Shown here in pieces: positions 7,356 to 64,000 of a stretch of 64,000 nt of DNA. A program made the translations under genes and the position numbers. The DNA is taken from the IMG/VR virus record IMGVR_UViG_2600255157_000003; one strand, given 5' to 3'. This stretch comes from an uncultured virus (IMG/VR IMGVR_UViG_2600255157_000003) (taxonomy: Duplodnaviria > Heunggongvirae > Uroviricota > Caudoviricetes). Position 1 is the stretch's first letter; each line of letters opens with the position of its first letter. Under the pieces are notes generated by a model that had not been told where the DNA came from, made no database searches, and saw nothing but the letters and a program-made list of their open reading frames with translations.

Positions 7356-7589
7356 TTATGTATTTGATAAATACAGCCACTTATAAAACCAATTAATCCT
7401 AAAACGAAATAAAAATGATTGGTTGTTAGTTCACATTGATTCACAAATGGCTGTAAGACTTCAATACAAATTTTATCTACATTAAATTGCACCAATATTC
7501 ATGCTACAATTAGTCCTTCTACTAATCCACTTAACAATAATTTCTCCTTTCCTCACCCAATGAAACAGGCATTTTATTTTCACAATTTC

Positions 7590-8039
7590 TTAATTAGTAT
7601 CGTCAATATTCATATTTTTCAATGCGGCTTCGGCTTCTTCTCTGGTAAGGAAAACTGTTTTTCCAAATTCTTCAGCAATAACGTCTATATCGCTTTCTCG
7701 GTCTGCCAAACACCTTTTATCATTAAAATTTGTTGTAATATGTATGACAATTGTCCCACACCATGTAACTCTAAATCCAGATATCCGACCTTCAATTGGC
7801 ATTTCTTCAAAAGGCGTAAAATCATCGAGATAATAAACTGTATCATTTAATGCATATGGAAGTTCAAGTAATCGCCCTTGTTCTTCTAAATTTTCATATT
7901 CTGCAAGTTTTCTTACAGCATCTCCAGTATGTATGATTCCGTCTTTCACAAACCAAGTTTCCACATCAGATTTCTTTACAAATATACCTTCACCATATAT
8001 TTCAAATGTTAATCTATCCATAATTATTTTCCTCAACAA
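7590..8039 (-). CDS. Hypothetical phage protein
   Basis: KLAEYENLEEQGRL and FGKTVFLTREEAE segments recurrent in Firmicutes phage proteins. Confidence 0.65.
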   Translation of the reverse strand: MLRKIIMDRLTFEIYGEGIFVKKSDVETWFVKDGIIHTGDAVRKLAEYENLEEQGRLLELPYALNDTVYYLDDFTPFEEMPIEGRISGFRVTWCGTIVIHITTNFNDKRCLADRESDIDVIAEEFGKTVFLTREEAEAALKNMNIDDTN

Positions 8040-8358
8040 TCATTATGACTTTTTAATATACTGTTATAGTACTTATTGCTCCTACTAATGCTAAAATAAA
8101 CATGAAAGCCAATATCCTAGCAGGAAATAATTTCTTCAAATTAAACACTCTCCTCTGTAATTTATCTCTTAATATTTCCCTTACCACCATCACGCAAATT
8201 CAAAGTCCAATGTTGAGTATTATCATCAGTATTTGCATAATTAAAAACTCTTTGTATACTTTCTATTACATACTCTTCTTCATTAAGAGTAGCGGTTACA
8301 GCACTATTATTTCTATCTAATAATGCTGTCGCCAACTCATGACTTGTACCAATTTTAT

Positions 8359-8934
8359 TTATTCATGTTCACTTCCTTTCATTAAATAATTCTCTAGTTC
8401 TATCCAATTAAAACACCTTTTGCCATTCCAATCTTCATTCCATTCATACTTGTCACCAAAACAAACTTTCATATTAGCATTACTATTATCTAAATATCGT
8501 TGCTCATCATCAATCAAAATGCCACCAGACATATCAATACATGATTTATCTTTATACTTATCCATATCAATGCCGATAAATTTTGCAAATGGTAAATTAT
8601 CTTTAATCCAAAACTCTTTACCAAAAAGATTAGGTTGGATGCCCATCGAAACAATTACTATTTCATATTTGTCTTTTAATCTGAATAATACTTCTTTTGC
8701 ATTATCCATAAATTCCACTTTTGCAAAAAATCTTGGTTGTGTGAAATATCTCTTTATATGTTTAGTTTTTGCACAGTTGCACTCTTTAAAATCCCATGTG
8801 CTAATATCTGTCCAATGTATGTAGTGATAGTTTGGATAATATCTGTAATCTTCGTTGTACATATCACAAATAGCTTTTATGCTATTGCAAATAGTGTTAT
8901 CATAGTCACAGTAGATCTTTGGTTTTCTTAAAAT
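8359..8934 (-). CDS. HAD-family 5'(3')-deoxyribonucleotidase-like protein; proposed ATT start at 8934
   Basis: Frame stays open upstream of the tracked ATG (8862) and contains the HAD motif I (IYCDYDNT); ILIDD motif IV. Confidence 0.75.
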   Translation of the reverse strand: MLRKPKIYCDYDNTICNSIKAICDMYNEDYRYYPNYHYIHWTDISTWDFKECNCAKTKHIKRYFTQPRFFAKVEFMDNAKEVLFRLKDKYEIVIVSMGIQPNLFGKEFWIKDNLPFAKFIGIDMDKYKDKSCIDMSGGILIDDEQRYLDNSNANMKVCFGDKYEWNEDWNGKRCFNWIELENYLMKGSEHE

Positions 8935-8940
8935 ATGGCA

Positions 8941-9474
8941 TCACTCACTTTCTATCATTACGGCTTCATTAACAAATTGTTTTACCTTTTCTTGTAGATT
9001 CTCAATAGTCCCATTGTTTTCAATTACAAAGTCATAATGATAATCAAACACATTTTTATCCGACACATTAGATGTAATATGTGTTACAGAGTCTCTAACA
9101 ATTAAAATAGATTTTGCTTTGAATTCATTAACCACTCTCTTAATTTCTTTTGGTTCTCTTATGTGCAGGAATAAAACTTGCCCCTCATCGCTTCCCATGA
9201 ATTCTTTAATTTTATTTTTCATGCTTTGGAATGGCATATCACAATAATTGCTCGTCAAGGACTTTAAATCAGATAAAAACTTTCTATCCTTTTCAGACTT
9301 TTTACCGTCCCAGCCGATTTCTCTTGCAATTTCTTTTACTTTATCAACAGATGAGAAATTAACTACTGTATGAAATCTTTTGAGTTTATCATTTACTTCT
9401 ACTAACACTAATTCTACGAAGGTGTCCTTTCCGACACCTCCAGAACCATTAATTACGAAGATTTGTTTATTCAA
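8941..9474 (-). CDS. Deoxynucleotide monophosphate kinase-like P-loop protein
   Basis: NGSGGVGKDTF, GWDGKK..DRKFL, YDFVIENNG. Confidence 0.75.
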   Translation of the reverse strand: MNKQIFVINGSGGVGKDTFVELVLVEVNDKLKRFHTVVNFSSVDKVKEIAREIGWDGKKSEKDRKFLSDLKSLTSNYCDMPFQSMKNKIKEFMGSDEGQVLFLHIREPKEIKRVVNEFKAKSILIVRDSVTHITSNVSDKNVFDYHYDFVIENNGTIENLQEKVKQFVNEAVMIESE

Positions 9475-9479
9475 ATATC

Positions 9480-10121
9480 TTATTCCTCCACTTCAATGTC
9501 ATCAAAAATAATAGGTAGTCTTATCTTTAGTTCATTTAACAAAGGTCTTGTAACCTCCTGCATCTGCGGATGTGCTGCCTTTGCCGTCCTTAGCTTAAAG
9601 AACGCACGCCACTCCCTATAATTTGCAGTAATTGTAATTTCTGTCTTGGTGCTATTTGGTAGAATTGAACGTGCTTCCTGTGGCGTGGCTCCCATACCAA
9701 TAGCACTCAAATATCCCGATTCCGCTAATGACATCGCCTGTTCCCAATTACTATATTCCTTAGTTCCTTCTTCCCAGAAAAACGGTTTAATAAATGTAAT
9801 GCCATTATCAAACTTATCTTTTGAATAGTTACAGTATCTTGTACTTTCCTGAGCAAAAGAAGCAATCCTGTGTCTTACCAACTCATGTGATACACCACGA
9901 TCTACTGTAAATTTTACAGACAGAGAAGAATGCTCTATCATTGCCTCATGTCCTCTTCCAATTAGCATTTTCACAAAATTCTTAGCAGATTCGCCATCTT
10001 CTGTAATCTTATCTTCAGATTTGTAGCATACACGTCCAATCTTCTCAATGTGCTGTAACTCCTTGATTCCGCCCTCGGAAATCTCTGTTAAAATTTCATA
10101 ACTTGGTTCAATAATTTTCAT
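9480..10121 (-). CDS. thyX: Flavin-dependent thymidylate synthase
   Basis: RHRIASFAQESTRY signature, GHEAMIEH, EARSILP. Confidence 0.95.
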   Translation of the reverse strand: MKIIEPSYEILTEISEGGIKELQHIEKIGRVCYKSEDKITEDGESAKNFVKMLIGRGHEAMIEHSSLSVKFTVDRGVSHELVRHRIASFAQESTRYCNYSKDKFDNGITFIKPFFWEEGTKEYSNWEQAMSLAESGYLSAIGMGATPQEARSILPNSTKTEITITANYREWRAFFKLRTAKAAHPQMQEVTRPLLNELKIRLPIIFDDIEVEE

Positions 10122-10157
10122 ACTTGTTTTCTCCTTTTTTTCTTTTAATATATTGTT

Positions 10158-10403
10158 TTAAACTTCAAATTTTCTCATATCTTCAATAAACGATGAAATA
10201 ACACATTTATCATCTGTAACGATTTTTGTTTCTATCTTTTTTCCTTGCGCGATTGCAAAAACACCTACAATAGATTTTGCATCAATGATACTTCTTCCAT
10301 CATACACATTGATATCAAAGTCCTTATATTTTAAACTTGAGCAGACATTAATAAAATCAGCCACCATTTCAGGTGTTGATAACCTAATTTTTAATTTATT
10401 CAC
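10158..10403 (-). CDS. HPr-family protein lacking His15
   Basis: IDAKSIVGV (Ser46 region), 81 aa, no histidine in the protein. Confidence 0.7.
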   Translation of the reverse strand: MNKLKIRLSTPEMVADFINVCSSLKYKDFDINVYDGRSIIDAKSIVGVFAIAQGKKIETKIVTDDKCVISSFIEDMRKFEV

Positions 10404-10477
10404 TTTTACCTCTCATGATTAAAATTTGAATTTTATTTTATTTGATGTGTTTACGAGTTACAATTATTACTTCTACT

Positions 10478-12818: not shown

Positions 12819-12875
12819 ATCATATATTCTCCTTTTCTTTCTATAAAAGCGTGGTTCTATTGATTTTTCTTATAA

Positions 12876-13788: not shown

Positions 13789-13818
13789 TTTTCTATCACC
13801 TGCCTTAAAACGAGCGAT

Positions 13819-14700
13819 TCATTGTTTGTACTCAAATTTATTTAACCACTCTTCTACAGGTTTCTTTTTACTCTTTCCATTAATATTGCCCTTGGTTCTC
13901 CCTTGAGAAAGTAGATAATTTTTATTTGAGCCTTCTAATTTAATGCCTTCAGATATGTAAATGGGTGCATTGTTCCATATTTGTCTTTCTAGTTCATATA
14001 CATTAAACGAATATCCATATTGTTGAGTATTTTGATATGGCGGATCAATATATATGATAATATTTTTATTCTTTTTAATATCCCATTCTTCATCAAGAAT
14101 ATATATAAAATCAAATACATCCATACAATAGCCATGTAATCCTTCTGCATATTTGCAAAGCAACTCTATTCTTTTATATAAATTATCTGGCATTGGCATC
14201 ATGGGATTTACAGGACTCTTTCTGTTACTTGTTTTTGTTGGCAACCAATAATCTCTTAATCCTCCTGCCTTACACCATTTATTATTTTCTACCCATGTTG
14301 CTGTTGAACCAAAAGCACATGCTTGTAAAAATAAGAAGTGATATGGCAACATATTTTTATCAACAGTATTTGAAATAATATTAGAAGCATATTGCTTTAT
14401 TTTTGTTATATCTCTTGGAATAGAATTGACAAAATCATTAAACAGTGATAATTCAAATGTACTATTGCCAATCATTTGCCAAACCAAACCCCAAGGAGAC
14501 TTATCCACCATATGAATATTTTGAGGTTTAACTCCTCGATTAAGTAATTCTACACTTATTGCTCCACTCCCACAGCAAATATCATAAAACTGTGTACTAT
14601 CATTGATTCTATTTTCTTCAAAAAATATATCTACGATCTGTTTTGCTAGTCGTTGTTTACCACCCTGATAACTGCAAGGAATTTCTAATTTTGATGTCAC
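13819..14700 (-). CDS. Dam-like (D12 class) DNA adenine methyltransferase
   Basis: SYQGGKQRLA, YDICCGSG, IDPPY. Confidence 0.85.
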   Translation of the reverse strand: MTSKLEIPCSYQGGKQRLAKQIVDIFFEENRINDSTQFYDICCGSGAISVELLNRGVKPQNIHMVDKSPWGLVWQMIGNSTFELSLFNDFVNSIPRDITKIKQYASNIISNTVDKNMLPYHFLFLQACAFGSTATWVENNKWCKAGGLRDYWLPTKTSNRKSPVNPMMPMPDNLYKRIELLCKYAEGLHGYCMDVFDFIYILDEEWDIKKNKNIIIYIDPPYQNTQQYGYSFNVYELERQIWNNAPIYISEGIKLEGSNKNYLLSQGRTKGNINGKSKKKPVEEWLNKFEYKQ

Positions 14701-14767: not shown

Positions 14768-15041
14768 TATTTCTCCTCCTGAAACTTATCTAACATTTCA
14801 TCATAATAAGCAATCTTTTCTTTGATATAATCAATCACCATATCTTCAAATTGCTCCATAGCATCTTCTATCGACTCAGCAAATTCTTCATCATGTTCTA
14901 CATTCAATAAGTCCGACACATAAATATAATTCTCCGAGTCTTTTTTTGTCTTGAATGAATTTGAGAATTATTTCATCATCATAGAATTGAGTAAAATTTA
15001 ACAACCAGTATCTATTTCATATTCTCTGATTTTATCAATCA
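14768..15041 (-). pseudogene. Frameshifted small acidic ORF
   Basis: Coding-like segments switch frame, once at an A8 run (14941-14948). Confidence 0.35.
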
Positions 15042-16192
15042 TTATAATCTCCGTTTATAATCTGTAAAATTTGTCTTACCAGTTCTGTCATTCGTTCCGA
15101 ATCGCCACTAAACATTTCTCCTGTGGTTTTTATTTGATATTCCCATTGATCCTTTGATGCAATTTCTACAGGGACATCGTGATACACCACTGTTCCTGTA
15201 GGAACACTCCATTCTGGATCATATTCATGCCTGTACTCTTTCGTTAATCTTTTTAAACTATTTTGACAACCTTTTTCGTACATTTTTGAATTGCTTCTAT
15301 TTGTATGATATGCTCTTGCGTAACTTACTCCTTCTATTTTCATGGGTTTAAATTTATTAATAATCAAAAGAACACCATCTGTAATTCTATAAATATCTTG
15401 ATACTCTGTTTTTGCTAATACTTCCAAGTTTTTAGTCCCTCCTCAACAGTTAAAACCTATCTTTCATTGCCTATTTGTTTACCATTTCACATATTTATCT
15501 GGTCTTGTTTCAATCCAATAAGAAACAAATCTTTTCATAAATTTACTTTCTTTTATGTAATCATAAGCAGATGAATTTCCGCTTACGCCAATACCTTTTT
15601 CATTCAGATACATTTTTAATTGATTAGAAACCATCTCATTATGATCTATCCATATAATTCCAAGATTAGGTTCTTTCGATAAAAAATCAACAGAACTATC
15701 AATATATCCTTCATGTAATTTTTCTACTTCTCCATTTCCAAAATACTCGTAAATCACAATTGGATAGTTTCTACGACTTGAAAATTGATAACTCTTGTCT
15801 GTATCTATAATTATTTCCCTCATTTATCTTATATCCTCATATTCTAAAATCTGAAATTCTTCAGGAATACAGCTGTAATCGCTTAGACACCTTTCCATAA
15901 TTTGCTTATTAAAATTGTATTTCTTCCATTTAATTTCCCATCTTTCATCATCAAATAGAATAAACTGATCTAGTCTTCTTCCTCTCAGGTCGCCTATTCT
16001 ATTTTCGTATAATCCAAATATTTCTGTTCCATCTTTTAGACGTATGTAACTTTGTTTATAATTATATATTGCTACATCTTCTTTATTATTTTCTGCAAAT
16101 TTTCTAAGTCCATCTTGTGTAAGCTGCGAATTATATCCTATAAATCCTATTTTTAGTGGTACTACTTGTTCTATTTCTCTTATAATTATCAC
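15035..16192 (-). CDS. Three hypothetical phage ORFs (15035-15427, 15479-15823, 15824-16192)
   Basis: Co-oriented, abutting, with RBSs. Confidence 0.55.
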
Positions 16193-16575: not shown

Positions 16576-17205
16576 ATGAGGAGGATATATATTATGAATT
16601 GGTGGGAATCAAGCACACTTTGGGGAATCATTGGTTTAATTGGTGGGTTTTTAATTAGTTCATTTTATTATTTTTTAGGCAAAACTAGGAAATCTTTAAT
16701 ATTTTATATTGAAACTTCTACATTAATTTCAAATAATGTAATTAAATTAGAGGGACTTGATATAAAATTTGACAATAAACCTATAACTTATCTCTATTGC
16801 TCGACAATACGGTTTAAAAATAGCGGAAATACTATTATTAAACCTACTGACTTTGAAACTTCAAATCCTTTGTCAATTATTATAAATAGAGAATCTATAG
16901 ATTATGATATACAGGTACAAATATTAAAAGAAAACAACATAAATAATACATATTATTTAATTAACGCTATTGAAGATAACATTTGCTACAAAGCAATTAT
17001 TGACTTTGAATATATTCCCAAAAAAGAAACACTTTCTTTTATAATTTTTCATACAGAATCCATATCAATAGTTGGCAAAATGCAAGACGGTAAATTAAAG
17101 AATAACGAATCACTTAAATGGATAATTTATGTAATATATTTAATAGTCTTTTTATGCATGGGTATTGCAGCTTTTATATTTGGAGTTCTTTCTAAGCATA
17201 TTTGA
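16576..17205 (+). CDS. Moron-like membrane protein with N- and C-terminal TM helices (likely start 16594)
   Basis: Opposite strand, very AT-rich, own TGATATAAT -10 and GAGGAGG RBS; two hydrophobic segments. Confidence 0.75.
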   Translation: MRRIYIMNWWESSTLWGIIGLIGGFLISSFYYFLGKTRKSLIFYIETSTLISNNVIKLEGLDIKFDNKPITYLYCSTIRFKNSGNTIIKPTDFETSNPLSIIINRESIDYDIQVQILKENNINNTYYLINAIEDNICYKAIIDFEYIPKKETLSFIIFHTESISIVGKMQDGKLKNNESLKWIIYVIYLIVFLCMGIAAFIFGVLSKHI

Positions 17206-17229
17206 AAGTCCTATTTCATCTGTATATCC

Positions 17230-17277
17230 AGTCTATATATAGTAGCTTATAGTTTTGCAAACTGCTATATATAGACT
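17230..17277. terminator. Hairpin between convergent genes
   Basis: AGTCTATATATAGTAG / CTGCTATATATAGACT followed by a T run. Confidence 0.6.
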
Positions 17278-17287
17278 ATTTTTTATG

Positions 17288-31322: not shown

Positions 31323-32660
31323 CTATCTCAGTGTACTTGTTTTTCTATCTGCCCATTCTCTGCAATTAATATTTATAGACAAAGGCAACTCCCATTTTGA
31401 AACTTCATCAATTAATTTCTCTATCTGAACCAAAACTCTGTCTGAATATTTACATACATTTGATTTGTTACAAGTCCGGCAATTTTTAGTATTATTCGTT
31501 TCTGTAATCATTTTCTCACCTCACAATTCATACTTCTTCACTGTGACATCCATCTGTAATCATTATAACTTTATCTGAATTTGCATCTTCAAATAAGCTA
31601 TAAATATTCTTACAATAGCAATGTTCTCCTGTTGTTTCCGTAAGATTGGTCACATAAAAATCATCATTATATTCACTCTTAGTATCGCCAATTACACCAA
31701 AAGCAATATCTCCTCTTTCTGAATCTCCCAGATAAATACCAATGGGTGTATCATCTGAAATATTATTATCGTCACACCACTTCTTTAGCTGCCCTATTGT
31801 TAATGGACTCTGTGTTTTTATAAAACTCACCTCCTTTACACCATGCCATGAAATAAGAAATTCAACCACTATTTATCAAACCAATACACATTAGAATTCT
31901 CTTCTTTTTCCTTATGATAATCTCCAATCCAATGGAATTGTCCATGATCTCTACACCAATCATGACATGCTGCTAAAACATTTGAGAAGTTCACCAGATT
32001 TGAATTTGACATCAAAAATTCCAAATCCAAATTTCTAATAGCATCTATTAATTCTCTCTTATATACTTCTTCGTATGGAATTTTATCAATTATCAAAGTT
32101 AAGTTATCTTTATCAAAACGTACATCTCCACATGTGAAATAATATTTTTCTTCCTCTATTCCATCATGGCAATAAGTATATATTCTACTCTTTAACCTTT
32201 TAATTTTTCCCACACATATCTTCTCAATAAACTCTACTGATGGATCAAAAAACTTGCTTTTATCTAATATATATTTGACTGTATATAATCCGTCTTCTCT
32301 TATTTCAAGACATTTTGTTCCAGAATACATTTGAATAGGAATAGGGGTGTCTTTTACAAGTCCTATCTTTTTTGCATATACCAGAAGATTTTCATTTTTA
32401 CTATGTACTCCAAATGGAATTCCACAAATAATAGAAAATGCAGTTCTGGCATCAAGCCACTTACTTTTCATATATAGACTTTCATCTTCTCTGATTCCTA
32501 CATTATCAGCTTCACCTTTCTCATATATTTCCTTCACCTCATCAAGATTGAAATAAGAATGAGAGCGATTATCATACCACCCAATTTCAATCCATTGGTC
32601 GCTCCATCCACCCATATAATCAGTCATTACACAAATGTTATCTATAAAATATTTCTTCAT
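31323..32660 (-). CDS. Hypothetical ORFs (31323-31511, 31528-~31821, 31869-32660)
   Basis: Co-oriented ORFs with RBSs. Confidence 0.55.
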
Positions 32661-32702
32661 TTATCTCCTTTATATCAAATGAAATTTCGGTTTCAATACT
32701 AT

Positions 32703-33855: not shown

Positions 33856-33858
33856 TTA

Positions 33859-37227: not shown

Positions 37228-37273
37228 CTCACTTTAAATCTTGAAACTCTGGATTCATTGTCTATTTACATAC

Positions 37274-40200
37274 TTAATGCTTTTCACTCCAAAGGATGCC
37301 TTCATAATCTACAGCTTTGTTATATAACTCTCTTAATGTCATACATACTGTTTCATCTGTTAAATGACAGCTAAAAAATGTTGTAGTGTATAATTTTGAT
37401 TCTCCATAACCATGTTTAAGATACACGTTCAACATATCCCACGAAAATTCATCTAATTCAAAAGGATTAAATTCTCCCACGTTTTATATTTCTCCTTTCC
37501 TATATCGATGAAAGCAAAATTTCAAGACTATTTCTTCACTTCATAAGCCACGTTTATCATGTCCTGAGCTTCTTTTAATTTATCTTTTGCTCGTTGCCAC
37601 GCTTGATATGATTTCTGTTTGGGATCTATGTCAAATAAATTTCTTTGTGCATTTGAAATGATAGTTCTTAATCTATCAAAATCAAACTTACCAGCATCAA
37701 TACAGCCAAAATGATTGTTATATTTATCTATAATTATTTTCCTTATTGTACTTCTATCGTCTTCGTATCTTTTCCTTACATCTTCTAAAGTACCTTCTAT
37801 AACTCGTGGATTTCCCCAACTATCATCAAATACATAACCGCCAAAACCCGTTACATATCTAATACAACTATGAGAAGAATTACTCCAAATCTTTTTATTA
37901 TTAGTCGCAGAATAATTTGCATTTTCCTTATATTCCATTCCTAATTCTTCAAAACATTCCCTTGTAATTCCCAACCATGCCTGTCCCTGTTCATATGTAA
38001 AAAGTGTAAAATCTTTGTCATCACCATTAAGAAATGCATTATGAATATATTGGCAACCTGTATCATACTTTGTCTTTTCAAACTGTACTAATAAAGGTTC
38101 ACTTATTTCTTGCTTGGTGTTATAAATTGGTGTCCACAATTGCATAAATTTTCTATATGCAAATTCATCATCAAGACTTTCCCACTCTTCTTCGTAACCG
38201 TCATACTTTCTTTTTGATAACAACTGATTTATTTGCTCATCATACTGTTTAACAGATAATTTTTCTTCGCCACATACATATTCTTTTATGTACTTGTTCT
38301 CTGTAATTATTCTAATGTTAGAAACGTCTTTTACCTGAACCTTAGCTTCACTATATGATTCAACAGTTATTACTTCTCCATCAACAAGGTATTTTCCAGA
38401 TTTTAAGTAAACTACTTTTAGATTTTTATCCTCAATATCTATTCCTTTTAATGGATTTATCGCTGGTGCAACCTCTTTATTCATTTATCCTCTCCTCAAT
38501 TCAACAATGCCGCAATTTCATCCAACTCTAATTCAGTCTTCTTTTCATCAGATAACATCTTGTCCAATTTAGATTCCAATGCTTTCAGCTCCGCTTCTTT
38601 ATTCTTGTACTCGAAAATCTCAATTTTACATCTAATATCTGTGATCCATTCTGCGATGTTATACCCCGAAACTTTCAAACTGATTCCCAAATCTTTAGCA
38701 GACATTAAATACATATTCAATCTAACAAACAACAACTGCAAATCATCAAACTGGAGAACATTCAAATTGTATTTCTGCCCTTCCAAATCTAAAACACAAT
38801 TTGTAAGTGGTGTGAATTTCTTTGATCCTTTTAGTTCTGTTTTCTTTTTATCAATAATCTGCTTTAACTGTAAAACTCTTTCATCATTTTTGCTCATATT
38901 TTGTACTCCTTTTCATATTCTCTACCATTTGCTAGATATTTTTGAATATATTTTGGTTTCATAATTTCATATATTTCTTTTAATTCCATAGGTTTTAAAA
39001 TTTTTGTTTCATAACCCACTCTATATCCATAAGACCATTTATCTTTATCCGCCTTAATATATTTCTTTATTTGGAATTTACCCTTATCATCTCCATAGCA
39101 ATCATCCGCCAAATAAGATTCATCATCACCAGCATGTGAACTTATAAATTTAAAGCTCCTATAATATATTTCTCCATTACTATGTTTTCTAATTCCTAAA
39201 TCCAAAAAATCCCCCAATGTCATATTACATACAACATCTTTTAATGGATCATATGGTGAATAATGATGTGAGCCTTCCAAAGCCCAAAATATATCAGAAT
39301 ATTTTGATGTGCATTTATCATCGACACAACTAATAAATTTATTTTGGGAAATACTTTTAAACTGTTTGAAATTCCATATATCATTATTTTCAGTAGCAAA
39401 CCAATAATATTTTCCATATGGATAGTTGTCTATATAGTCATAATCAATATACTCATAGCCATATCTACCATGTACACGTGGGATTTCTTTCCCTGATTTG
39501 CTTGTTTTTACTTCTCCATTTTCAGTCCACTTATAGCCACTGTCATAATAGTCGAATCTTCCTACATAAATCCATTCTTCGTTATCTTTTGTAAGATATG
39601 TAGCACCTACAATTAAATCTTTTGCTTTAATGCTTTCATTATTATGTACGATTTTGTTATATTCTGTGATCTGCTTATAATCAGGAGACTCCACTGGCAT
39701 AAGTACCAAATCCTTACCGTCCCAGCCATAAACAAATTCTCCTTCGAGTCCTTTACCTTTGATGGAATTTGCATTTTCAAGAATATATAACAGATTTTCA
39801 ATGGTTATCTCAAACTCAAAGTTACGTGGATCATATACTCTACAATATGCTTGACGGTGATCCCATCCCGAAGAATAATCACCAACCTTTTTATTCAGTA
39901 CAAATCCCGTTGTCGGCACATTATCAAATTCTTCATTAGGAATCTTTTTGTCACGCCAACTATTCCAAGATGCTTCTTTTCTCAGTTTGCCTTTTTCGTC
40001 ATAGTAAATTACATATGCCAATTTACCTGTGTAAGTACCAGAACGATTTTGGTATCCTACATTGATTATTTTGGGAATAAATATATTACTTTTCAAGCGA
40101 TTCCTCCTTGTGCTTTTAATTAAGTATACAGTTCTTTTAAATCAATTCCGTATTTATCCAATATTTCCTTTTTTATTTCTAACAGGTAATCGCAATCATC

Positions 40201-42319: not shown

Positions 42320-42366
42320 TTATATCACCTCCTGCCATAAAACCGATGTTTTAAGTCTATATGTAT

Positions 42367-43188: not shown

Positions 43189-43320
43189 TCTTTATTAGGA
43201 GTAAATCATGATTTATTCTGCGCAGAAACCTCATTTCCTCCTGTTTTTCATTATTCTAATTTTTGCATATGCTTATTTTGCTTCTACTTTTTGACATACA
43301 ATGAATCGAAATTTTCATTG

Positions 43321-44346: not shown

Positions 44347-44629
44347 TTACTGTATTTACAAGGTATGCGCATACATATTACCTAGAATTACTTGTATATC
44401 TCCTTTCATAGTCTACTGAATTGCTGATTTTTTATTGACATTTGCAACTGCCAATAAAAATATAATTTCTTCTGCTTACTCTATTTCATCTTCTATACAG
44501 CGGATAATTTTACCGATGAAATTGGCTTTCTATTGGGTATCACACCCATTTTATGTAGACAACATTGTGTACATAAGGCATTAGAAGTACCTCTATCCAA
44601 TAGTCCTTAAAAGACATTTTGGAATACTT

Positions 44630-45585: not shown

Positions 45586-46080
45586 TTAAACTTCCTTAAT
45601 TTTATCTGCCAACATATTTATCAATCTTGCACCATGCGGATATAACGCATTTTCCATTACTATGTAATCTAATTGCATCATTCCTCTACCTTGATTTTCT
45701 TCAATAATATCTGCTAATATATTGAAAAAATCTGCTTGTTGCGCTGAATCCATATTCCAGAACTCTTCAGCTAATTCCTGTGGATTCATTTCTATATTAA
45801 CTTCTCTTGTTACTATTTCTTTTCGCCTCCTCTGGATGAAACAGATTTTTCATTCAGTATATCCAAACTCAAACATAATTGATTTTATTTGATCCTCATT
45901 ATAAGCATACTGTTTTGGATATCTATACTCTGCTATTTCATAAGCCATAGATTCTATAATTTCTTTCATCTCTTCTTTACAATTATCATATCCTTCCTGA
46001 TATCCTAAATCTTTTCCTGATTCATACATAATAGTTTCATTACTATCAATCATTTTTTTATCCTTTTCGCACTTGACCAC
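45586..46080 (-). CDS. Two small hypothetical ORFs (45586-45789, 45850-46080)
   Basis: Short acidic ORFs. Confidence 0.45.
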
Positions 46081-46320: not shown

Positions 46321-46326
46321 TATAGA

Positions 46327-46827: not shown

Positions 46828-46844
46828 GAATATTGAGGTTAATT

Positions 46845-49358: not shown

Positions 49359-49394
49359 CTATCACCTCTTTTCTGCCTTGAAATCTCGATTTCA

Positions 49395-49646
49395 TCACTC
49401 TACTTCGATTAACACTTCTCCTTCTTCATCAAGTAGCTTTTCACCTTTTTCAAGATAAACTATTCTATCTGTCATTGATTCTGAAAAACTCATTGCCTGT
49501 AAAAAATATTTAAACTCATCTAACAGCCAATCAATTCTTCCTATTTCTTCTTCATCTCCAGTGAAAGTTTTCTTTAGTGAAACAGATTCACCATTCTCGT
49601 TTGTAAAAGAGAATGATATTTTACCAATTATTTCTTTGCTATTCAT
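49395..49646 (-). CDS. Small acidic hypothetical protein
   Basis: 83-aa ORF with RBS. Confidence 0.55.
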   Translation of the reverse strand: MNSKEIIGKISFSFTNENGESVSLKKTFTGDEEEIGRIDWLLDEFKYFLQAMSFSESMTDRIVYLEKGEKLLDEEGEVLIEVE

Positions 49647-50538: not shown

Positions 50539-50553
50539 ATTATCAAACCCTCC

Positions 50554-55775: not shown

Positions 55776-57260
55776 TCACTCTCTCCCAATTTTCAAGTCA
55801 AGAGCAAACGTATTCAATTTTTTCAATTTGTCACACGGAATTATTTTCTCAATTGTCTTATATATATCACTTCTACATTTGTTACATAAAACCATTTCAA
55901 TTGGTAATAAATCGGATGGTTCACTTTCTATAAAAGTTGCAGCTATTGGGACACTAAATATTTTATTATTACATTCATTCCCACATAGATCACAAAAATA
56001 TCTAATCAATTAATCACTTCCTTAATTATTCTATTTGAGCAGAACACTCTTCCCCATACTATGTTTTTAACAAAAATACCTATTTCCATACATCGAATTT
56101 CCCTGCTCACTTTGTTTAGTTTCTTCTTGTTGCATTAATTTATCAAATTTCTCAAATATCATGTCATTTATCTCACTTCTATCAATATAAGTATCTCCAT
56201 TTCGAAAATGTGCAATTAATTTACTATCGTCAACCAATTCTAATTTTAAGTCAACATCTCCTTCGACATAAAAACGACATTTCTTCATTGAATTTACAAT
56301 ATAATCTTTCAAATGCCTGGGAATATATTGAACATTCGTCAATATCACATGATAATTCAAGTATATTGTATATATATTCCTTATAAAATTTATTCTTTGA
56401 TATACATTTTCCCCAGTTATTGTGTTCAAAACGATCGATAAATACTTTTAAAGTAATATTGATAGGTGTTACTACCATTTCTGTATGGTTCAAATTAATA
56501 TATTCTTTATAGTAACCATAAATCATATGCCTTAAATCGTCCCATAACATTGTATTTACTTTTTTTGAGAAGTGTTTTGCACATTTTAAATAATAATTTT
56601 CGTCATATTTTATCCCGCCAAAATATTTATAAAGAACAAGTTTGTATCCACAAGGGCATTCAAATTCAAAATCTTCTTCATTAATTGAAATACTTTTTAC
56701 TTCATGCTCGTAAACTTCACTTACGGAGCCACAACATGGGCACGTTTTTTTTGCATATGGTATTTGTTTTTTTCTTTTTTTACTATTATCAACCAATATT
56801 TTAGGCATTTTACTCATCTTCTTTCTTAATATAAGCAACTTACTGATTATTCCACGTTAAGGAGCACTATCCATGTACAGACGGCTCTCAAAAGTGTGCT
56901 GGTGACTCTTTGGGGCAAAATATTCAACCTGCCGATAAATCGCAGATTTCAAAGCTATACTTCTTCTTCACAAACAAACATTTCATCAAATACCTTTAGA
57001 ACACCTATAAAGTCTTCAAGCATTGGCATATACTTTACATTGATATACTGATCATCTTTTGCCGTATCAAGTGACACAAACGGAGCAAAAGACGCTTCTC
57101 CTTGATCAAGGCATAATACTCCAAGAGAAATACCATCTTTATTCAATTGAAAATGATAGTGATCTTTACTATTCATAATCTTGATAGTAACTTCACATCC
57201 AGTTTTTCTTTTCAATGTCTCCGCAAACACCTTATAATTTTTTACTTTCATAATTTCCAT
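55776..57260 (-). CDS. Hypothetical ORFs (55776-56009, 56067-56838 in two overlapping frames, 56955-57260)
   Basis: The 56067-56429 / 56251-56838 overlap suggests one frameshifted gene. Confidence 0.45.
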
Positions 57261-58237: not shown

Positions 58238-58362
58238 GAACCCATGAAAGATTCCTAAATAACAAATTAGAGAAAGGATATAACAAGTAATTCCGGATAA
58301 GTTAGCGTTGCAACGCCTTGTAGATAAGGCATTTGAAAAGTAATAATAAAAGATTTATTCTA
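58211..58362. other. Putative invertible segment carrying the methyltransferase leader and start
   Basis: Sites TAAAC-taaatc-TTTCA and TAAAA-gattta-TTCTA have reverse-complementary cores; inversion gives in-frame MKSNNKRFSLKEEG. Confidence 0.6.
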
Positions 58363-58677
58363 TTGCCACTCTATTATTTCTCCAACAAACTTCTGAATTA
58401 ACTCATTTACGTTAGCTGGATATGTTTTTACCACATAATTTGTATCAACCACTATTTTTATTATGATGCTATTGTTATCGAAATTAATACCTCCAACTGT
58501 ACCTCCAGGCACTCTAATAGCAAGACACTTTTGATTTTTACACCATTCATCTGCTAATATGTAATGATGAAACATATCATAGTAATGTTGTTTGGAGATG
58601 CCAGAAATGTCATCTAACTCTTTAGTCAAATCGCATCTGTACTCATTACAGCCCGACATACGCTGTTCTAATTTCAA
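58360..58677 (-). CDS. Hypothetical protein
   Basis: GGAGG RBS, 105 aa. Confidence 0.55.
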   Translation of the reverse strand: MKLEQRMSGCNEYRCDLTKELDDISGISKQHYYDMFHHYILADEWCKNQKCLAIRVPGGTVGGINFDNNSIIIKIVVDTNYVVKTYPANVNELIQKFVGEIIEWQ

Positions 58678-58716
58678 TCTTTTGCCTCCATTTATAATTT
58701 TTCAGGAATTACCGAC

Positions 58717-58826
58717 TTGATTAAGTCATAAAGAATTGTTATAATCAGATTTATCAAGACGGTTTTCCGTTTTGTTACTTATAGACATCCTGTCCACTCG
58801 CCAAAGTATCAGGATGTCTATTTTTA
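58717..58826 (+). ncRNA. Putative sRNA gene, copy 2
   Basis: TTGATT-N17-TATAAT promoter; 12-bp stem 58781-92/58810-21 with TCGCCAAA loop and T run. Confidence 0.6.
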
Positions 58827-58837
58827 GTTTTCTACAT

Positions 58838-59227
58838 TCAAAAATATCTTTTCGCATCACTAGGCGTGTGTATATCATTTGGTTTTATCATTACTTTTCT
58901 TGAAAAGTAATAGTTTTCATCACATTTCAAAACATACATAAATGTCATATCTCCAAAATCATCAATTACCTTTCCTGCCATATGTCCAAAATAAATTGCA
59001 TCCTTATTTAATGGCTTAAAACAGCATAATCTACCTAATGGTATCTCACACTCAATCTTCTCTGTTTTATTTTCTTCTCTCTGACTATGTTCAAATGCCC
59101 TCAGTTCATCTTTTCCGATCCATTTTACCCATGCACCGCAATCATCACAATACAATCCGGTATTATTACCTTTTACTTCTGTATGTAGTGATATACTTCC
59201 ACATTTCTTACAACAATTTTGGTACAC
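58838..59227 (-). CDS. Zn-ribbon hypothetical protein
   Basis: CKKCGS..GLYCDDCGAWVKW. Confidence 0.6.
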   Translation of the reverse strand: MYQNCCKKCGSISLHTEVKGNNTGLYCDDCGAWVKWIGKDELRAFEHSQREENKTEKIECEIPLGRLCCFKPLNKDAIYFGHMAGKVIDDFGDMTFMYVLKCDENYYFSRKVMIKPNDIHTPSDAKRYF

Positions 59228-59322
59228 AAACTCACCTTCCTTCCAGTTAAAATGTTTCTTTCATCTATTGATTTCTGGAAATATTTTGTTATACTTAATT
59301 TATAACGCAAAAGGAGGACGAC

Positions 59323-59457
59323 ATGATCGAGAAAGTTTTTTCATACCCCTCTGCGATGCAAAGTATAATATTAATTTATCGAAGTTCTTCGCCAAAATTT
59401 CAGCGTTATGCCAAAGTAGTCTTTGGGAGGGGTTCCTCTGGCGAACAAAAAGAGTGA
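59323..59457 (+). CDS. 44-aa peptide in its own transcription unit
   Basis: TTGATT-N16-TATACT promoter, AAGGAGG RBS, terminator 59444-59481. Confidence 0.55.
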   Translation: MIEKVFSYPSAMQSIILIYRSSSPKFQRYAKVVFGRGSSGEQKE

Positions 59458-59481
59458 CTATTGATAGTTGCTCTTTTTGTT
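59444..59481. terminator. Bidirectional intrinsic terminator
   Basis: AACAAAAAGAGTGACTAT-TG-ATAGTTGCTCTTTTTGTT. Confidence 0.8.
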
Positions 59482-60168
59482 ATATATGAAACCTTCGTTC
59501 TATTGGATATCACGGTTCACTTTTTCAAATTTGTACACCTTCTTTACTTCTCCCTCTTGTTCGTGCAAATAATCATAGTTTGCATCTATTTGTCCCTCTA
59601 CAAACGATGGCCATAACCATGCAAAAAAGAATCATACCTGTGATACTGATTCAATCTGACTTTTAATGCAATCTTCTGTAAATTCATAGGCAAGATCATG
59701 AAATCTTTTAAGATATTTCTCTTTCATTTTTACTGCTTCTTCTGTCTCAGTAGCTCCATCAAAACAATCTTGAGTAAATGTTTTAATTTTCATATTCTCT
59801 GGATAGCCTTCTAAACTATTTTTCATATATTCTCACTTTCTTCCTACTTTAAACGGAAATTTTAAAGACCTATATCATTGGAAATCTTGAAAACATTTTA
59901 CCAATGTCACTAATACTTTTGATAACTGCACATTCCACCTTTTCTTTTTCAACAAATTTCTTTAGATCCTCTTTCTTTCTGTGAAAGTGACAGCTTCAAT
60001 TCTGAAATCTCAGAATTTTTATTATTGATTTCATATTGCAGCCTTCTAATTTCGGAACGAAACTTAATCCTCTCTTTTTCACAAGCAATATCTTTTGCTG
60101 ATTTCTTTCTCTCCATAACATCTCATACCTTTCTCAATCTTTTCTCATCAAAACAACCTGAATTTTCA

Positions 60169-60505: not shown

Positions 60506-60524
60506 ATTCATTGAAACTCGTGAT

Positions 60525-60788
60525 TCATCGTTTTGCGAAACTACTTTTTATGCTCTCCATTCCACAATTATGTTTACAATTGCCACACATTGTTGTGTGT
60601 CTCCAATCGCAAATTTCTTTTGCGCTGCATTGGCAACCCAAACTTGAATTGTATATGTTATATCCATCTTTATTTTTATTACTTTCCATAATATTCAAGC
60701 AGACAAATATAAACAATAAGACAGGAACTAATATCAATCCAACTAATAATACTACTAATAATATTTGACCCATTGTCACATTCTCCAT
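60525..60788 (-). CDS. Small membrane-anchored Cys-rich protein
   Basis: N-terminal TM segment; C-terminal Cys cluster. Confidence 0.55.
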   Translation of the reverse strand: MENVTMGQILLVVLLVGLILVPVLLFIFVCLNIMESNKNKDGYNIYNSSLGCQCSAKEICDWRHTTMCGNCKHNCGMESIKSSFAKR

Positions 60789-60800: not shown

Positions 60801-61838
60801 TCAATTACTAAATAATTCTTCTACATATTTATCCATATCATATCCCAATTTCACACAATTCCCATGGGATATATGATTTTTCCAAGCATTATAACTTTCA
60901 TAGAACTTTTCTTCACTTATCTTTCCATTCCTTACCAACCTGACCATTTTCTTAAATTTCTTTTTAGCTGCACGCTTGTTTTCGTTCTTCAGCTTACGGA
61001 TCACCTTGCCATCAGAAGTCACATATGTGTGAAATCCACAAAATTTAATTCCATTTTTAAATGGAATAATCTGTGTCTTACCATTCAATTCGAGTCCTAA
61101 TGTATACACAAATTTATAAATAGCACTTAAACACCACTTAGCATATTCCTTTCCCTGAACTATCAAATAGAAATCATCCATATACCTGCCATAATATTTA
61201 ACTCCGAGTTCCCCAGTGATGAAGTTATCTAAACCTGATAAATATGTAAGCGCATATACCTGGCTGACTTGATTACCAAGCGGAAGTCCTAATCCATCTG
61301 TGCTATCAATAAACTTTTCACATAGCCAATACACATCTTTATCTTCCACAAAATAACTTACAATATCTTTTAAAACATCATGATCTATATTGTAAAAAAA
61401 TTTACTGATATCTGCTTTTATAATCCAACAGTTATATCCATATTTACAATATGCCAGATACATATGCGCCTTTAAACAATCCAAACCATATAATGTACCT
61501 TTTCCTATTTGTCCTGCATAATTTGTCTGTATGAATTCTTTTTTCAGTATTGGAATTAAAACATTATCACATAAAGAATGCTGTACTATTTTATCTACAA
61601 ATGAACACGATTTAATAATTCTCTCTTTAGGTTCATATATTGTAAATTCATTATATTTTGATACATTATATGTCTTTGTCTCTAATCTTCTTTTTATTTG
61701 ATGAATTCCATCCAAAGCCATCACTTGAAATTTTTGACTACTTTTAGAAAATCCTTTACCTGATTTGGACTTTAAATATGCTTGATACAAATTACCGAAA
61801 TCTACTACTTTTTCAAAATCTGTTTTATCTTCTATCAT
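60801..61838 (-). CDS. DGR reverse transcriptase
   Basis: GKGT, KADISKFF, GLPLGNQVSQ, RYMDDF. Confidence 0.95.
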   Translation of the reverse strand: MIEDKTDFEKVVDFGNLYQAYLKSKSGKGFSKSSQKFQVMALDGIHQIKRRLETKTYNVSKYNEFTIYEPKERIIKSCSFVDKIVQHSLCDNVLIPILKKEFIQTNYAGQIGKGTLYGLDCLKAHMYLAYCKYGYNCWIIKADISKFFYNIDHDVLKDIVSYFVEDKDVYWLCEKFIDSTDGLGLPLGNQVSQVYALTYLSGLDNFITGELGVKYYGRYMDDFYLIVQGKEYAKWCLSAIYKFVYTLGLELNGKTQIIPFKNGIKFCGFHTYVTSDGKVIRKLKNENKRAAKKKFKKMVRLVRNGKISEEKFYESYNAWKNHISHGNCVKLGYDMDKYVEELFSN

Positions 61839-62059: not shown

Positions 62060-62428
62060 TTATCTTTCTTTATCTTTTGAACGCCAAGCAATACTCATAT
62101 ATTTCACATCATTTATTTGTTTCTGCCAATATCCTACTGTATCACTTCCTATTAAATTCAATTTCATAGAAAGTTCTACATAACAAGATAACTTATCACA
62201 ACATGAAATCGCTTTTGTTTGCAGTTCTTGACGTTCTGATTTTGAAGTATCCAATTTCAGTCTATTTGCATCAAGCAAATATTCATATATATCCATACAG
62301 CGATTTTGGATGCGTTTCACCAATGTTAAATGCTTAACTGGATACCTCTTTCGGTTTGATGTAATTGTCATAGTATATTCCATAAGATTTATTGCTTTTA
62401 CAATAACATCCAGTTTCGCTTCGCTCAC
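62060..62428 (-). CDS. avd: DGR accessory variability determinant
   Basis: 122-aa helical basic protein between target gene and TR. Confidence 0.85.
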   Translation of the reverse strand: MSEAKLDVIVKAINLMEYTMTITSNRKRYPVKHLTLVKRIQNRCMDIYEYLLDANRLKLDTSKSERQELQTKAISCCDKLSCYVELSMKLNLIGSDTVGYWQKQINDVKYMSIAWRSKDKER

Positions 62429-62468
62429 TGGCTACTCCGCTCCTTTCAGTCGCTCATAGGCTGTTGAC

Positions 62469-62490
62469 GGCAAGGGCTTACGCCCTCGCC
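62469..62490 (-). other. DGR cis-acting hairpin downstream of VR
   Basis: GGCGAGGGC-GTAA-GCCCTTGCC just after the target stop. Confidence 0.75.
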
Positions 62491-62493
62491 TAG

Positions 62494-63300
62494 TTACTGG
62501 CTATCCGTTACATTGTCGCAAGATCCAAAGATATCAGATTGGAGGATGAAAAACGGACGCACACCCCTGCCATAAACACACCTGCCGTAGCTCACATCAC
62601 CATCAGAGCAGACGTACTGAACATAGCGGGAATCTCCTCTCTTTGGTGTTTGATTAGGATTTGCAAGCCAATACAAGTCTTCAATCAATGGAATATTCTC
62701 CCCAAACTTCATAAGTAACTGAATATTTGGAATCGCTAAAATATCTCCTTCAACTGTGCCATAGTCCTTAAAACCATCCATAGATGTTAGATCCAGAGAA
62801 ATGGGAACCAATTTATCTCCAAATTCTTTCTTTAACTCTGCAGCTAACTCACTATTGACAAGATAATTGCGCACATAGGAATCTGCATAATTATTTGTCT
62901 TACCAAACTCTGATTTTTTAAGAATTCCATTCAGAAAATAATATGTAAGGTTCCCATCAGTAACACTTGTCCAATAATGTCCACAAATGAATTTGAAGTT
63001 CTTCTTCCAATCTTCCATATATTTTTCAACGGCATTTCTAAATTCCTGCACGTATCTCTCTGGATCTTTTTCATACCAGTCTGGTACAATATCTTGATCA
63101 ACCTTATATCTCCAGTCTTTTACATCACTCATTCTATCATTATTTTTCGGAATCAACTCAGCTCTCACAAATGTCTTTGTTGCATTCATATGAGTATCTG
63201 CAATTCCAAGGCTTTCTAACAAATCTGAATGACTTTCGTTACCTTTTGGTGTTAATACAACCTTGTTTTTTAAAATAATTCCACTCTTAAACTGACACAT
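62494..63300 (-). CDS. DGR target protein with C-terminal CLec-like variable domain
   Basis: YWL...GVRP ending; contains the VR. Confidence 0.9.
   Translation of the reverse strand: MCQFKSGIILKNKVVLTPKGNESHSDLLESLGIADTHMNATKTFVRAELIPKNNDRMSDVKDWRYKVDQDIVPDWYEKDPERYVQEFRNAVEKYMEDWKKNFKFICGHYWTSVTDGNLTYYFLNGILKKSEFGKTNNYADSYVRNYLVNSELAAELKKEFGDKLVPISLDLTSMDGFKDYGTVEGDILAIPNIQLLMKFGENIPLIEDLYWLANPNQTPKRGDSRYVQYVCSDGDVSYGRCVYGRGVRPFFILQSDIFGSCDNVTDSQ
62552..62630 (-). repeat. DGR variable region (VR)
   Basis: 9 A>G and 1 A>T relative to TR; 3' flank TTTTTCATC vs TTCTGGATC in TR (IMH/IMH*-like). Confidence 0.95.
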
Positions 63301-63360
63301 AATTTATCTCTCCTTTTCTTCTTTGTTAATGTATACTTCTCTTTTCTGTTCTTGAAAGTT

Positions 63361-63522
63361 TCATTTTATGTCTGGTTCTTCATCACTTATAATTCCAATG
63401 CTACGCATGTAATCTTCTTCTAACATTAAAATCGTTTCTATGATTTCCTTACTGGTATCACATCTTTCCGAAATAAAATTAATTGCGTCTTCAAAATCAT
63501 ATACTGGTGTATTGTTATCCAT
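63361..63522 (-). CDS. 53-aa acidic hypothetical protein
   Basis: GGAGGA RBS; MDNNTPVYDFEDAINFI... Confidence 0.55.
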   Translation of the reverse strand: MDNNTPVYDFEDAINFISERCDTSKEIIETILMLEEDYMRSIGIISDEEPDIK

Positions 63523-63693
63523 ATCATTTCCTCCAATTTCTAAACCTACAATTATTTTAATTTTGCTTATTGCAATTTAACAACCGACAAGTTACAATAT
63601 ATATTAATGGTATGCCACCTGTGACATGCTTTGCTAAAGTGAATACACCTCGAATAAAGCTCAATTATCAAGCTACAAAGGAGGTGATAAGAC

Positions 63694-63795
63694 ATGGGCA
63701 ATGTACCTATGGTGCGTGTCCGTGCTTACTGGCGGTTCCGTCTGAACAGATGGGAACACGTTCGTAAGCATCTGCGTCATTATCCTAACCGATAA
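63694..63795 (+). CDS. 33-aa Arg-rich peptide MGNVPMVRVRAYWRFRLNRWEHVRKHLRHYPNR
   Basis: TTGCAA-N17-TACAAT promoter (63570-98), AAGGAGGTG RBS. Confidence 0.7.
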   Translation: MGNVPMVRVRAYWRFRLNRWEHVRKHLRHYPNR

Positions 63796-64000
63796 TGGGC
63801 AGAGGTGGCTATACCAGAAATACCAAATAAAATCAAATTTTCATTGACAAAACATACTAATAAAGCATTTGTCCGCAACCACAATATCCTGGATATTTCA
63901 TCAAATTGTGACACTTTGGACAAAAATATTTTCCTTCAATTATTTCTCTTGAAATTGCGACTTGTTTTTCCAGAGCAATAATCGCTACAGAAATTGCTTG

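Follow-up and report, generated by a model that had tools for sequence, protein, structure and literature searches.

A dyad-symmetric word at the gene junctions of the early arm of a large SPbeta-like gut prophage, tentatively read as a multi-site operator

Introduction

The stretch of DNA considered here, 64,000 nt of an uncultured virus of the Caudoviricetes (IMG/VR record IMGVR_UViG_2600255157_000003; G000:C12:187055-251054; hereafter the window), poses the question of what a short palindromic word, two inverted arms around six free bases, is doing at one gene junction after another. An earlier note on this DNA, made from the sequence alone, had written the word as TRAAW-N6-WTYYA, listed 25 sites and proposed that the accessory region is an array of gene cassettes exchanged by tyrosine recombination, with a repressor operator or an mRNA processing signal as alternatives. 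The word is found here to be a genuine junction element, almost wholly confined, in about 45 copies, to the leftward early and accessory arm of a prophage. The reading tentatively preferred is a multi-site operator, and the repressor operator that the earlier note had itself mentioned fits the dyad symmetry better than cassette recombination does.

The prophage is carried by a gut Firmicute genome of about 7 Mb (6.78 Mb). G+C content falls from ~45% to ~32% between C12 ~189 kb and ~370 kb, which therefore delimits a prophage of ~180 kb, with the window as its left third. According to our own greedy, uncurated open reading frame (ORF) calls, from which all gene coordinates are taken, genes lie on the minus strand as far as C12 ~288 kb and encode nucleotide metabolism, a ligase, a Pol III-type replisome, NAD salvage, four DNA methylases, RNA-repair enzymes, reverse transcriptases, toxin-antitoxin pairs and Fic. 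Past ~288 kb the genes are on the plus strand and encode antirepressors, a 916-aa protein, and head, tail and lysis proteins. The 916-aa protein (L083:5775-8525; C12 296775-299525), which lies beyond the window, is a YonO-type single-chain RNA polymerase with 42% identity to SPbeta YonO over 891 residues. Its arm also holds a terminase gene and homologues of yonJ, yonN, yonF and yonD, and the late genes of the phage are syntenic with those of SPbeta; the YonO homologue and the yon homologues in one arm therefore mark the phage as a distant SPbeta-like phage.

Results and discussion

Enrichment of the word at junctions of one arm

All but one of the 25 sites fit TRAAW-N6-WTYYA where they had been placed, the misfit being the copy at 40750, whose right arm reads TTTGA, and the claim that every 6-bp core differs is correct (25 of 25 distinct). 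Counted on both strands of the window, the pattern matches 74 times, as against 34.8 ± 7.1 in 100 dinucleotide shuffles (largest value 51). The intergenic DNA from position 3425 onward (74 segments, 4,883 nt) holds 20 distinct sites where 1.97 ± 1.36 are expected (300 shuffles, largest 6), and the coding DNA of the window holds 20 where 19.65 ± 4.0 are expected (60 shuffles). Because coding DNA stands at chance level, only the junction copies exceed chance. The proposed junction bias thus holds against shuffled controls, and so does the caution attached to it that an A+T-rich pattern will produce chance matches, as roughly half of all matches are chance hits in coding DNA.

Expectation-maximization (EM) without a preset pattern, applied to the 102 intergenic gaps of at least 25 nt in the minus-strand arm (11,456 nt), recovered the same motif with a posterior above 0.5 in 46 gaps. 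When the genome was scanned with the resulting matrix at a threshold of at least 12 bits, 42 sites of the minus-strand arm fell in intergenic DNA (12,954 nt) and 20 in coding DNA (85,646 nt). The plus-strand arm had six (10,953 nt) and ten (70,047 nt), respectively, and the rest of the 6.78-Mb genome had 417 sites (6.15 per 100 kb). About 42-46 of the ~100 intergenic gaps of the early and accessory arm are occupied, and the array runs on for ~31 kb past the window, to C12 281712. As the earlier note had observed, no junction copy lies in the replisome block or in the NAD operon. The motif is 2.6-fold more frequent across the whole host genome than a mononucleotide model predicts; a host regulon was considered and rejected, as no 10-kb block outside the prophage holds three or more strict copies. 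A full-text literature search returned no description of this motif or of the junctions of this phage family, although sequence words are not reliably searchable in this way.

Symmetry and placement

The coding-strand consensus reads c-A-A-T-G/A-A-A-A, then six bases of free sequence, then T-T-T-C/T-A-T-t-g, and hence the dyad-symmetric cAATGAAA-N6-TTTCATTg, with arms of 5 to 8 bp, a spacer of free sequence and half-site centres ~11 bp apart, or about one helical turn. The frequencies of the EM matrix are mirrored, such that position 5 (G.53, A.36) is matched by position 18 (C.43, T.48) and position 3 (A.64, T.36) by position 20 (T.60, A.39). A polarity had been proposed earlier from the TTG that follows many plus-strand copies; this fails, since TTG belongs to the outer palindrome CAA...TTG and the best-scoring strand of the 42 intergenic sites is minus in 25 cases and plus in 17, so that the site is essentially symmetric.

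The placement of the copies between a stop codon and the next ribosome-binding site is well borne out, with 29 of 42 lying no more than 20 nt past the upstream stop codon and 27 of 42 having a Shine-Dalgarno (SD)-like word within 12 nt. Ten of the 42 (13806, 45837, 58347, 60512 and six beyond the window) open with the very triplet that terminates the upstream gene, and the permitted left-arm variants TGA, TAG and TAA are exactly the three stop codons. Gaps shorter than ~30 nt never hold a copy, and by our own reading 19 of the 34 co-directional gaps of at least 30 nt in the window do. Some copies lack a downstream gene: those at 17203 and 59487 lie between convergent genes, and that at 60512 precedes a terminator-like hairpin. 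The copies listed in the window are as follows.

7561..7576: minus strand TAAAA-N6-TTTCA, 13 nt past the stop of 7590-8039, SD next, EM posterior 1.0
10420..10435: 16 nt ahead of the start of 10158-10403
12844..12859: left arm TAGAA on the minus strand
13806..13821: TGA doubles as the stop codon of the Dam-like methylase gene 13819-14700
15451..15466: between 15479-15823 and 15035-15427
17203..17218: between 17288-18031 (minus strand) and 16576-17205 (plus strand), no SD after it; the homology block of G041 stops at 17202
31849..31864: homology blocks of relatives begin at 31846 and 31861; a contig piece stops at 31865
32680..32695: downstream of the NAD operon; block ends at 32680 and 32695, contig-piece borders at 32676 and 32678
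37242..37257: recurrent break at 37246, between spacer and right arm
37509..37524: an identical 22-nt unit sits directly behind a different gene in L117
40388..40403: left arm TAGAA
40750..40765: degenerate copy, minus strand TCAAA-N6-TTTCA, outside the earlier pattern, EM posterior 1.0
42338..42353: copy plus SD, a 30-36 nt island retained between replaced flanks in relatives
43302..43317: full 8-bp arms CAATGAAA...TTCATTG, 3 nt past a stop codon, no nearby SD
44517..44532: homology blocks stop at 44516 and 44529
45837..45852: TGA doubles as the stop codon of 45850-46080; joints at 45852 and 45854
49379..49394: directly past the stop of 49395-49646; contig pieces begin at 49378 and 49381; homology to G042 continues across
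56936..56951: 3 nt past a stop codon
57290..57305: downstream of the C5 methylase gene 57308-58237
58347..58362: TAG doubles as the stop codon of 58360-58677
59248..59263: ahead of the SD of 58838-59227; homology blocks stop at 59260 and 59264
59487..59502: at the 3' end of the plus-strand ORF 59268-59489, between convergent genes
60512..60527: TGA doubles as the stop codon of 60525-60788, terminator-like hairpin next
63353..63368: homology blocks of two relatives stop at 63369
63828..63843: near the window end, with the array continuing beyond

A few junction copies are preceded, at a distance of 10-60 nt or so, by one or two examples of a second type of palindrome, ACTATATATAGT, which was seen at about 17225-17285 of the window (minus strand) and at L005:13900-14000 in group B relatives. 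The gaps 62428-62494 and 58677-58838, which lack the word, carry G+C-rich hairpins instead; these may be terminators or other structured elements.

Variants in related phages

In IMG/VR, 173 stretches were confirmed as members of the family and 80 loci were kept, many of them on contigs of ~100 kb or more. The TGAAA form is common to some loci (e.g., L054-L066), many others carry CAAGAAA-N6-TTTCYTWTGG at their junctions instead, and one orthologous junction switches between the two forms. Four more distant relatives (L069, L073, L077 and L079) showed no junction palindrome, and at least one of these uses an ordinary promoter. Such lineage-specific variants are as expected if the motif is read by a phage protein that co-evolves with it. 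Clustering of flanks at 60% identity merged unrelated A+T-rich junctions in its two largest clusters, and the smaller clusters alone were interpreted. Spacer positions were unchanged in 14 short alignments (0 of 84), but these alignments were anchored on the motif and are hence biased; at orthologous junctions chosen by their flanks, two of six spacer positions vary among nine sequences at one junction, and the spacers at the others are unchanged.

Module borders and homology breaks

The earlier note had proposed comparing the breakpoints of related prophages with the word. Homology does often break exactly at copies. Mouse-gut samples were found that cover more than 80% of the stretch. Contigs from mouse-gut metatranscriptomes, which hold no start, end or strand information, may contain DNA and are uninformative over the parts they leave uncovered, align in pieces at 32678-37246, at 31259-31865 followed by 32676-39604, at 43301-44529, from 49378 onward and at 45638-45851, and their joints fall at 42354, 45852, 37260 and 37531. 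Between replaced flanks, islands of 30-36 nt comprising the motif and its SD are retained. The blocks shared with L117, a 129-kb IMG/VR relative, stop at 37246, where the spacer meets the right arm, and at 44516, immediately beyond a copy. The gene at 37528-38484 is absent from L117; it has a copy on its downstream side only, its upstream border being the stop codon of the preceding gene, and this indel is the only one that was read base by base. The joints examined likewise have a copy at one end only.

Junctions without the word break about as often in close relatives. Using matches of at least 80% identity, the five closer records gave 78 distinct block ends, ten of them at a copy, 38 within 12 nt of another gene end and 30 elsewhere. 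Of the motif junctions, 11 of 23 showed a break, as did 29 of 73 of those without the motif (p=0.63); among gaps of at least 30 nt the figures were 10 of 21 and 9 of 30, respectively (p 0.25). Counted as events, there were 20 breaks and four crossings at motif junctions and 62 breaks and 28 crossings at the others (p=0.21). A difference did appear in gene-pair linkage, defined as the frequency with which a relative retaining one gene of a neighbouring pair retains its partner too, scored over nine reference loci with 132 of 323 junctions informative: linkage was 0.43 across motif junctions (n=17), as against 0.70 across all others (n=115, p 0.0005) and 0.64 across motif-less gaps of at least 25 nt (n=28, p=0.017). 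The same junction recurs in several references, so that the observations are not independent and the effect looks stronger from these p values than it is. Copies are found at module borders somewhat more often than other junctions are, and such borders do not need copies.

Comparison with known repeated elements

The closest parallel in setting is SPBRE (SPbeta repeated element) of Bacillus phage SPbeta, an inverted-repeat element that is bound by the repressor MrpR (PMC10516654). Both phages are large and temperate, with a YonO polymerase and syntenic late genes, and in the early region of both a partly palindromic word recurs between genes, often immediately ahead of an SD; in SPbeta eight copies were counted in 50 kb, just upstream of the SDs of early genes. 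The sequences differ, SPBRE being AAATACAAAWAATATGTATA and unrelated to the EM matrix obtained here. SPBRE also has ~10 bound sites, all of them promoter-associated and oriented with the genes, whereas ~45 symmetric and mostly promoter-free sites are found here. MrpR is a repressor with a recombinase fold that lacks the catalytic residues; the 340-aa recombinase-family protein of the present arm, described below, retains R/H/R/H/Y, and no homologue of MrpR is recognisable by sequence.

The stoperators of cluster A mycobacteriophages (L5 gp71 and relatives) offer a parallel in number. These are 13-bp asymmetric sites, bound by a repressor monomer and oriented with transcription, of which 20-30 or more are spread over the genome, mostly away from promoters and in short intergenic gaps (PMC6550527). 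Their motifs differ between related phages (PMC6550527 and PMC9283540). The 42 intergenic sites of the arm are likewise tens of mostly non-promoter sites, but unlike the asymmetric and oriented stoperators, at which the immunity repressor blocks elongation, they are dyads with no strand preference and lie in one arm only.

The PeSL regulatory cassettes of T4-type phages are repeated intergenic elements that flank accessory genes and occur at the borders of insertions, deletions and replacements (PMC2839356). Like the present word they lie beside accessory genes in a plastic region; a like coincidence of the word with module borders is favoured by the lower linkage across its copies, while the break counts in close relatives show no excess over motif-less junctions. 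The PeSL elements differ in comprising a strong sigma-70 promoter and a terminator stem-loop and in forming mini-circles, whereas the copies here have neither promoter nor terminator beside them and a weak hairpin at most. In Cluster K mycobacteriophages the extended start-associated sequence (ESAS) is an imperfect inverted repeat around a variable spacer, to which no function has been assigned (PMC3203893). ESAS and the start-associated sequence (SAS) resemble the present word in that they closely precede the starts of some of the genes. ESAS has 17-bp arms and spacers of 4-13 bp and is paired with the asymmetric, singly oriented 13-bp SAS, whereas the word here has arms of 5-8 bp, a fixed 6-bp spacer and no second element.

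The attC sites of integrons are 57-141 bp long, with paired R''/L'' and L'/R' boxes and a conserved GTTRRRY core, and pdif sites are 28-bp XerC-6 bp-XerD sites with 11-bp arms. Both resemble the present word in having inverted arms around a centre and in being placed at gene 3' ends and module borders. The conserved word here spans only 16-22 bp, however, with no further conserved flank found, and only 5-8 bp per arm are conserved. An attC array would be expected to vary by a gene plus one site, with a site left on each side, where copies are seen here on one side only. An integron also has an IntI-type integrase, with attI and a cassette promoter, at the head of its array; of the four PF00589 ORFs of this phage none heads the array.

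Tyrosine recombinases of the prophage

The search for a further tyrosine recombinase suggested by the earlier note was productive, as three genes of the family were found besides the integrase gene.

L081:18043-19065, minus strand: tyrosine-recombinase-family gene
L083:14154-15263, plus strand: tyrosine-recombinase-family gene
L086:14392-15393, plus strand: tyrosine-recombinase-family gene

The 340-aa recombinase of the arm has an unusual layout, with the catalytic domain at residues 76-258 followed by a tail of ~80 aa. It has 142 homologues, with one close relative in IMG/VR, and since R104, H217, R220, H247 and Y256 are invariant across 32 sequences it is probably an active enzyme. A copy of the motif lies ahead of the SD of its own gene. 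The recombinase is missing in three of five motif-bearing relatives, one of them 100% and another 93% complete, and is 38% identical in the other two. A gene for an Xer-like 333-aa recombinase adjoins the tail-fibre genes of the plus-strand arm, a position that could point to tail-fibre switching.

What the word may be

The dyad, the conserved arms around a free spacer, the mirrored variants, the lack of strand preference, the confinement to one arm and the lineage variants together form the signature of a homodimeric DNA-binding protein. A phage-encoded homodimeric regulator would recognise the dyad site at the gene junctions of the early arm and would block passing transcription or occlude the region beside the ribosome-binding site, acting in the way of SPbeta SPBRE and MrpR and of the mycobacteriophage stoperators. 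The motif coincides with the borders of exchanged modules because it is the sole conserved non-coding word at the borders of accessory genes; the coincidence would be a by-product that may in turn aid exchange through short homology, as with the PeSL elements. The motif itself, its symmetry, its position and its restriction to an arm and a lineage are direct observations, whereas protein binding, repression and any role in recombination are inferred. The operator for a phage-encoded dimeric protein that silences or gates the early arm is accordingly offered as a tentative first choice.

Several observations weigh against this operator. A search by co-occurrence for the binding protein, covering the 340-aa recombinase and three helix-turn-helix proteins, leaves no candidate standing; for the three helix-turn-helix proteins of the prophage, five motif-bearing relatives yielded neither a close orthologue nor a covariation signal. 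Searches at the sequence level only, PDB sequences included, found no homologue of MrpR/YopR. The divergent switch region, where a master repressor would be expected to have its operator, holds only weak copies. The symmetric site is unlike the asymmetric, oriented stoperators, and its tight fit to the stop codon and the SD would also suit an RNA or translation signal.

Such an RNA-level signal, a transcribed palindrome bound or cut by a phage or host factor that sets the translation, stability or processing of the cistrons of a long early transcript, is nevertheless unlikely. The position between stop codon and SD would be well explained by it, contigs from RNA runs bridge copies (one, 38863-41181, spans those at 40388 and 40750), long transcripts are likely in the minus-strand arm because few recognisable promoters are found there, and the phage is rich in genes of RNA metabolism. 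Among the paired arm positions there are 17 G:U pairs and 8 A:C pairs, a weak hint of RNA pairing that counts against a DNA operator; the A:C mismatches (8 of 200 pairs) are not avoided, since single-column frequencies predict ~6 at one pair position alone. The RNA hairpin of the 5-bp arms is too weak to be stable, with a mean energy of +0.24 kcal/mol, only 8 of 40 sites below -1, and Watson-Crick pairing in just 43 of 120 of the outer three pairs. A conserved stem sequence with a free loop is also the reverse of most RNA-protein sites, copies lie between convergent genes or before terminators with no SD after them (17203, 59487 and 60512), and a signal in RNA would not be expected at sites without strand preference (25 versus 17). 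A start site for phage-specific transcription, by host RNA polymerase that a phage factor redirects or by the YonO-type enzyme, giving short leaders just before the SD, is quite unlikely. Copies do lie immediately upstream of SDs, the phage encodes its own polymerase, and the SPbeta element overlaps -10 boxes directly ahead of SDs; sigma-70-like promoters are not enriched on the arm (98, versus 114.8 ± 11.8 in shuffles) and none stands beside a copy, yet a near-consensus one occurs in a plus-strand insert (46292-46320). Intrinsic terminators are also not enriched (6, versus 5.0 expected), with none beside copies, and the switch region showed nothing clearer. Against such a start site stand the palindrome without strand preference, the several copies without a downstream gene, the lack of any conserved element at a fixed distance on either side and the separation of the copies, in the early arm, from the polymerase gene, in the other. 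In SPbeta, YonO initiates transcription of the late genes at a single promoter (PMC5467207), and because of this a YonO promoter at 45 early junctions is unlikely. A sigma-54-like reading of the geometry (TGGCA-N6-TTGCA) was rejected, the GG and GC doublets of the consensus being absent and the start falling inside the SD.

Readings in which the word serves DNA exchange have the break data to draw on. As a recombination linker, a word of 16-22 bp would be the substrate of homologous or short-homology exchange between co-infecting relatives, with module shuffling as its main selected effect. Breaks exactly at or inside copies, the retained islands of motif and SD, the lower linkage, an AAA_24 protein, a PD-(D/E)XK nuclease and a single-stranded DNA-binding protein encoded as a recombination set on the minus-strand arm, and the PeSL elements, which show the principle (PMC2839356), all favour it. 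Motif-less junctions break about as often in close relatives, though, the differing cores leave only 5-8 bp per arm in common between different copies, the linkage junctions are not independent and tight operons inflate their control, and the conserved, symmetric arm sequence is left unexplained; the linker is distinctly improbable. Very unlikely, too, is a composite in which a phage protein pairs identical copies in co-infecting relatives and so promotes precise crossovers, the word both gating expression and shuffling accessory genes across a gut phage family.

The cassette array of the earlier note, in which segments bounded by copies would be excised, inserted or inverted through cleavage within the N6 core by a tyrosine recombinase, stands in part: the word is a genuine junction element of the accessory region and homology often breaks at its copies. 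Its geometry of inverted arms around 6 bp is that of such a system, three recombinase-family genes accompany the integrase gene, the 340-aa recombinase has invariant catalytic residues and a copy before its own SD, and one break (37246) falls between spacer and right arm. Most tyrosine recombinases require matching overlap regions between partner sites, however, and here all 25 cores differ, spacers vary at true orthologous junctions, and the conserved arms are short. Only one side of the 37528-38484 indel, and one end of each joint examined, carries a copy, breaks are not in excess over motif-less junctions, and the recombinase is missing in three of the five motif-bearing relatives and only 38% identical in the other two. 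Site-specific recombination of cassettes by this word is therefore highly improbable.

Other features of the prophage

The left end of the prophage adjoins a host gene, and its integrase gene lies directly at that end.

1-1200: host carA, which ends at 1200 and adjoins the integrase gene
2231..3424, minus strand: tyrosine integrase (PF00589, E 8e-21) at the prophage end

The NAD salvage block (32703-36687) comprises five genes, for an isochorismatase-type amidase, a protein like phosphoribosyl pyrophosphate synthetase, NAMPT/NAPRTase, NADAR and NadE, with tight or overlapping junctions and no palindrome inside. It is missing in relative G045, in which homology is interrupted at 32695 and 36738. 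When 40 related host genomes were searched at the DNA level, distant matches to the NAD genes were all that emerged, with no related prophage, and the replisome block matched none of the GenBank phages by megablast. Insertion-sequence genes lie within or beside the replisome block (22044-23288 and 28735-30072), encoding an ISAZ013-type DDE transposase and an IS605 OrfB/TnpB-like protein, and an IS110-type transposase gene follows further on (L081:2570-3946).

The RNA-metabolism genes of the phage encode a CCA-adding enzyme, RlaP, a Thg1-like protein, three MazF/PemK toxins and an NYN nuclease. An RNA-repair-like set (window 49648-53889 and L081:1187-2041) consists of a DHH-family protein, the CCA-adding enzyme with an HD domain, RlaP and the Thg1-like 3'-5' polymerase, and the three MazF/PemK toxins are found with two MazE antitoxins further along the minus-strand arm. 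There are two reverse-transcriptase genes, at 46309-47816 (plus strand) and 60801-61838 (minus strand). The former is preceded by two small ORFs and by the near-consensus sigma-70 promoter at 46292-46320, and its locus has the look of a self-contained insert of the defence type within the early arm.

Conclusions

Large SPbeta-like prophages are common in gut Firmicutes, and to our knowledge hardly anything has been described of how they are regulated. With close to half of the early-arm junctions marked by one dyad word, there is now a handle by which the regulator may be found and by which immunity groups may be predicted from the variants. The word could also delimit accessory modules, among them methylases, toxin-antitoxin pairs, reverse transcriptases and NAD salvage genes. 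If it does promote exchange, the idea of the mobile regulatory cassette would extend from T4-type phages to the temperate phages of Firmicutes.

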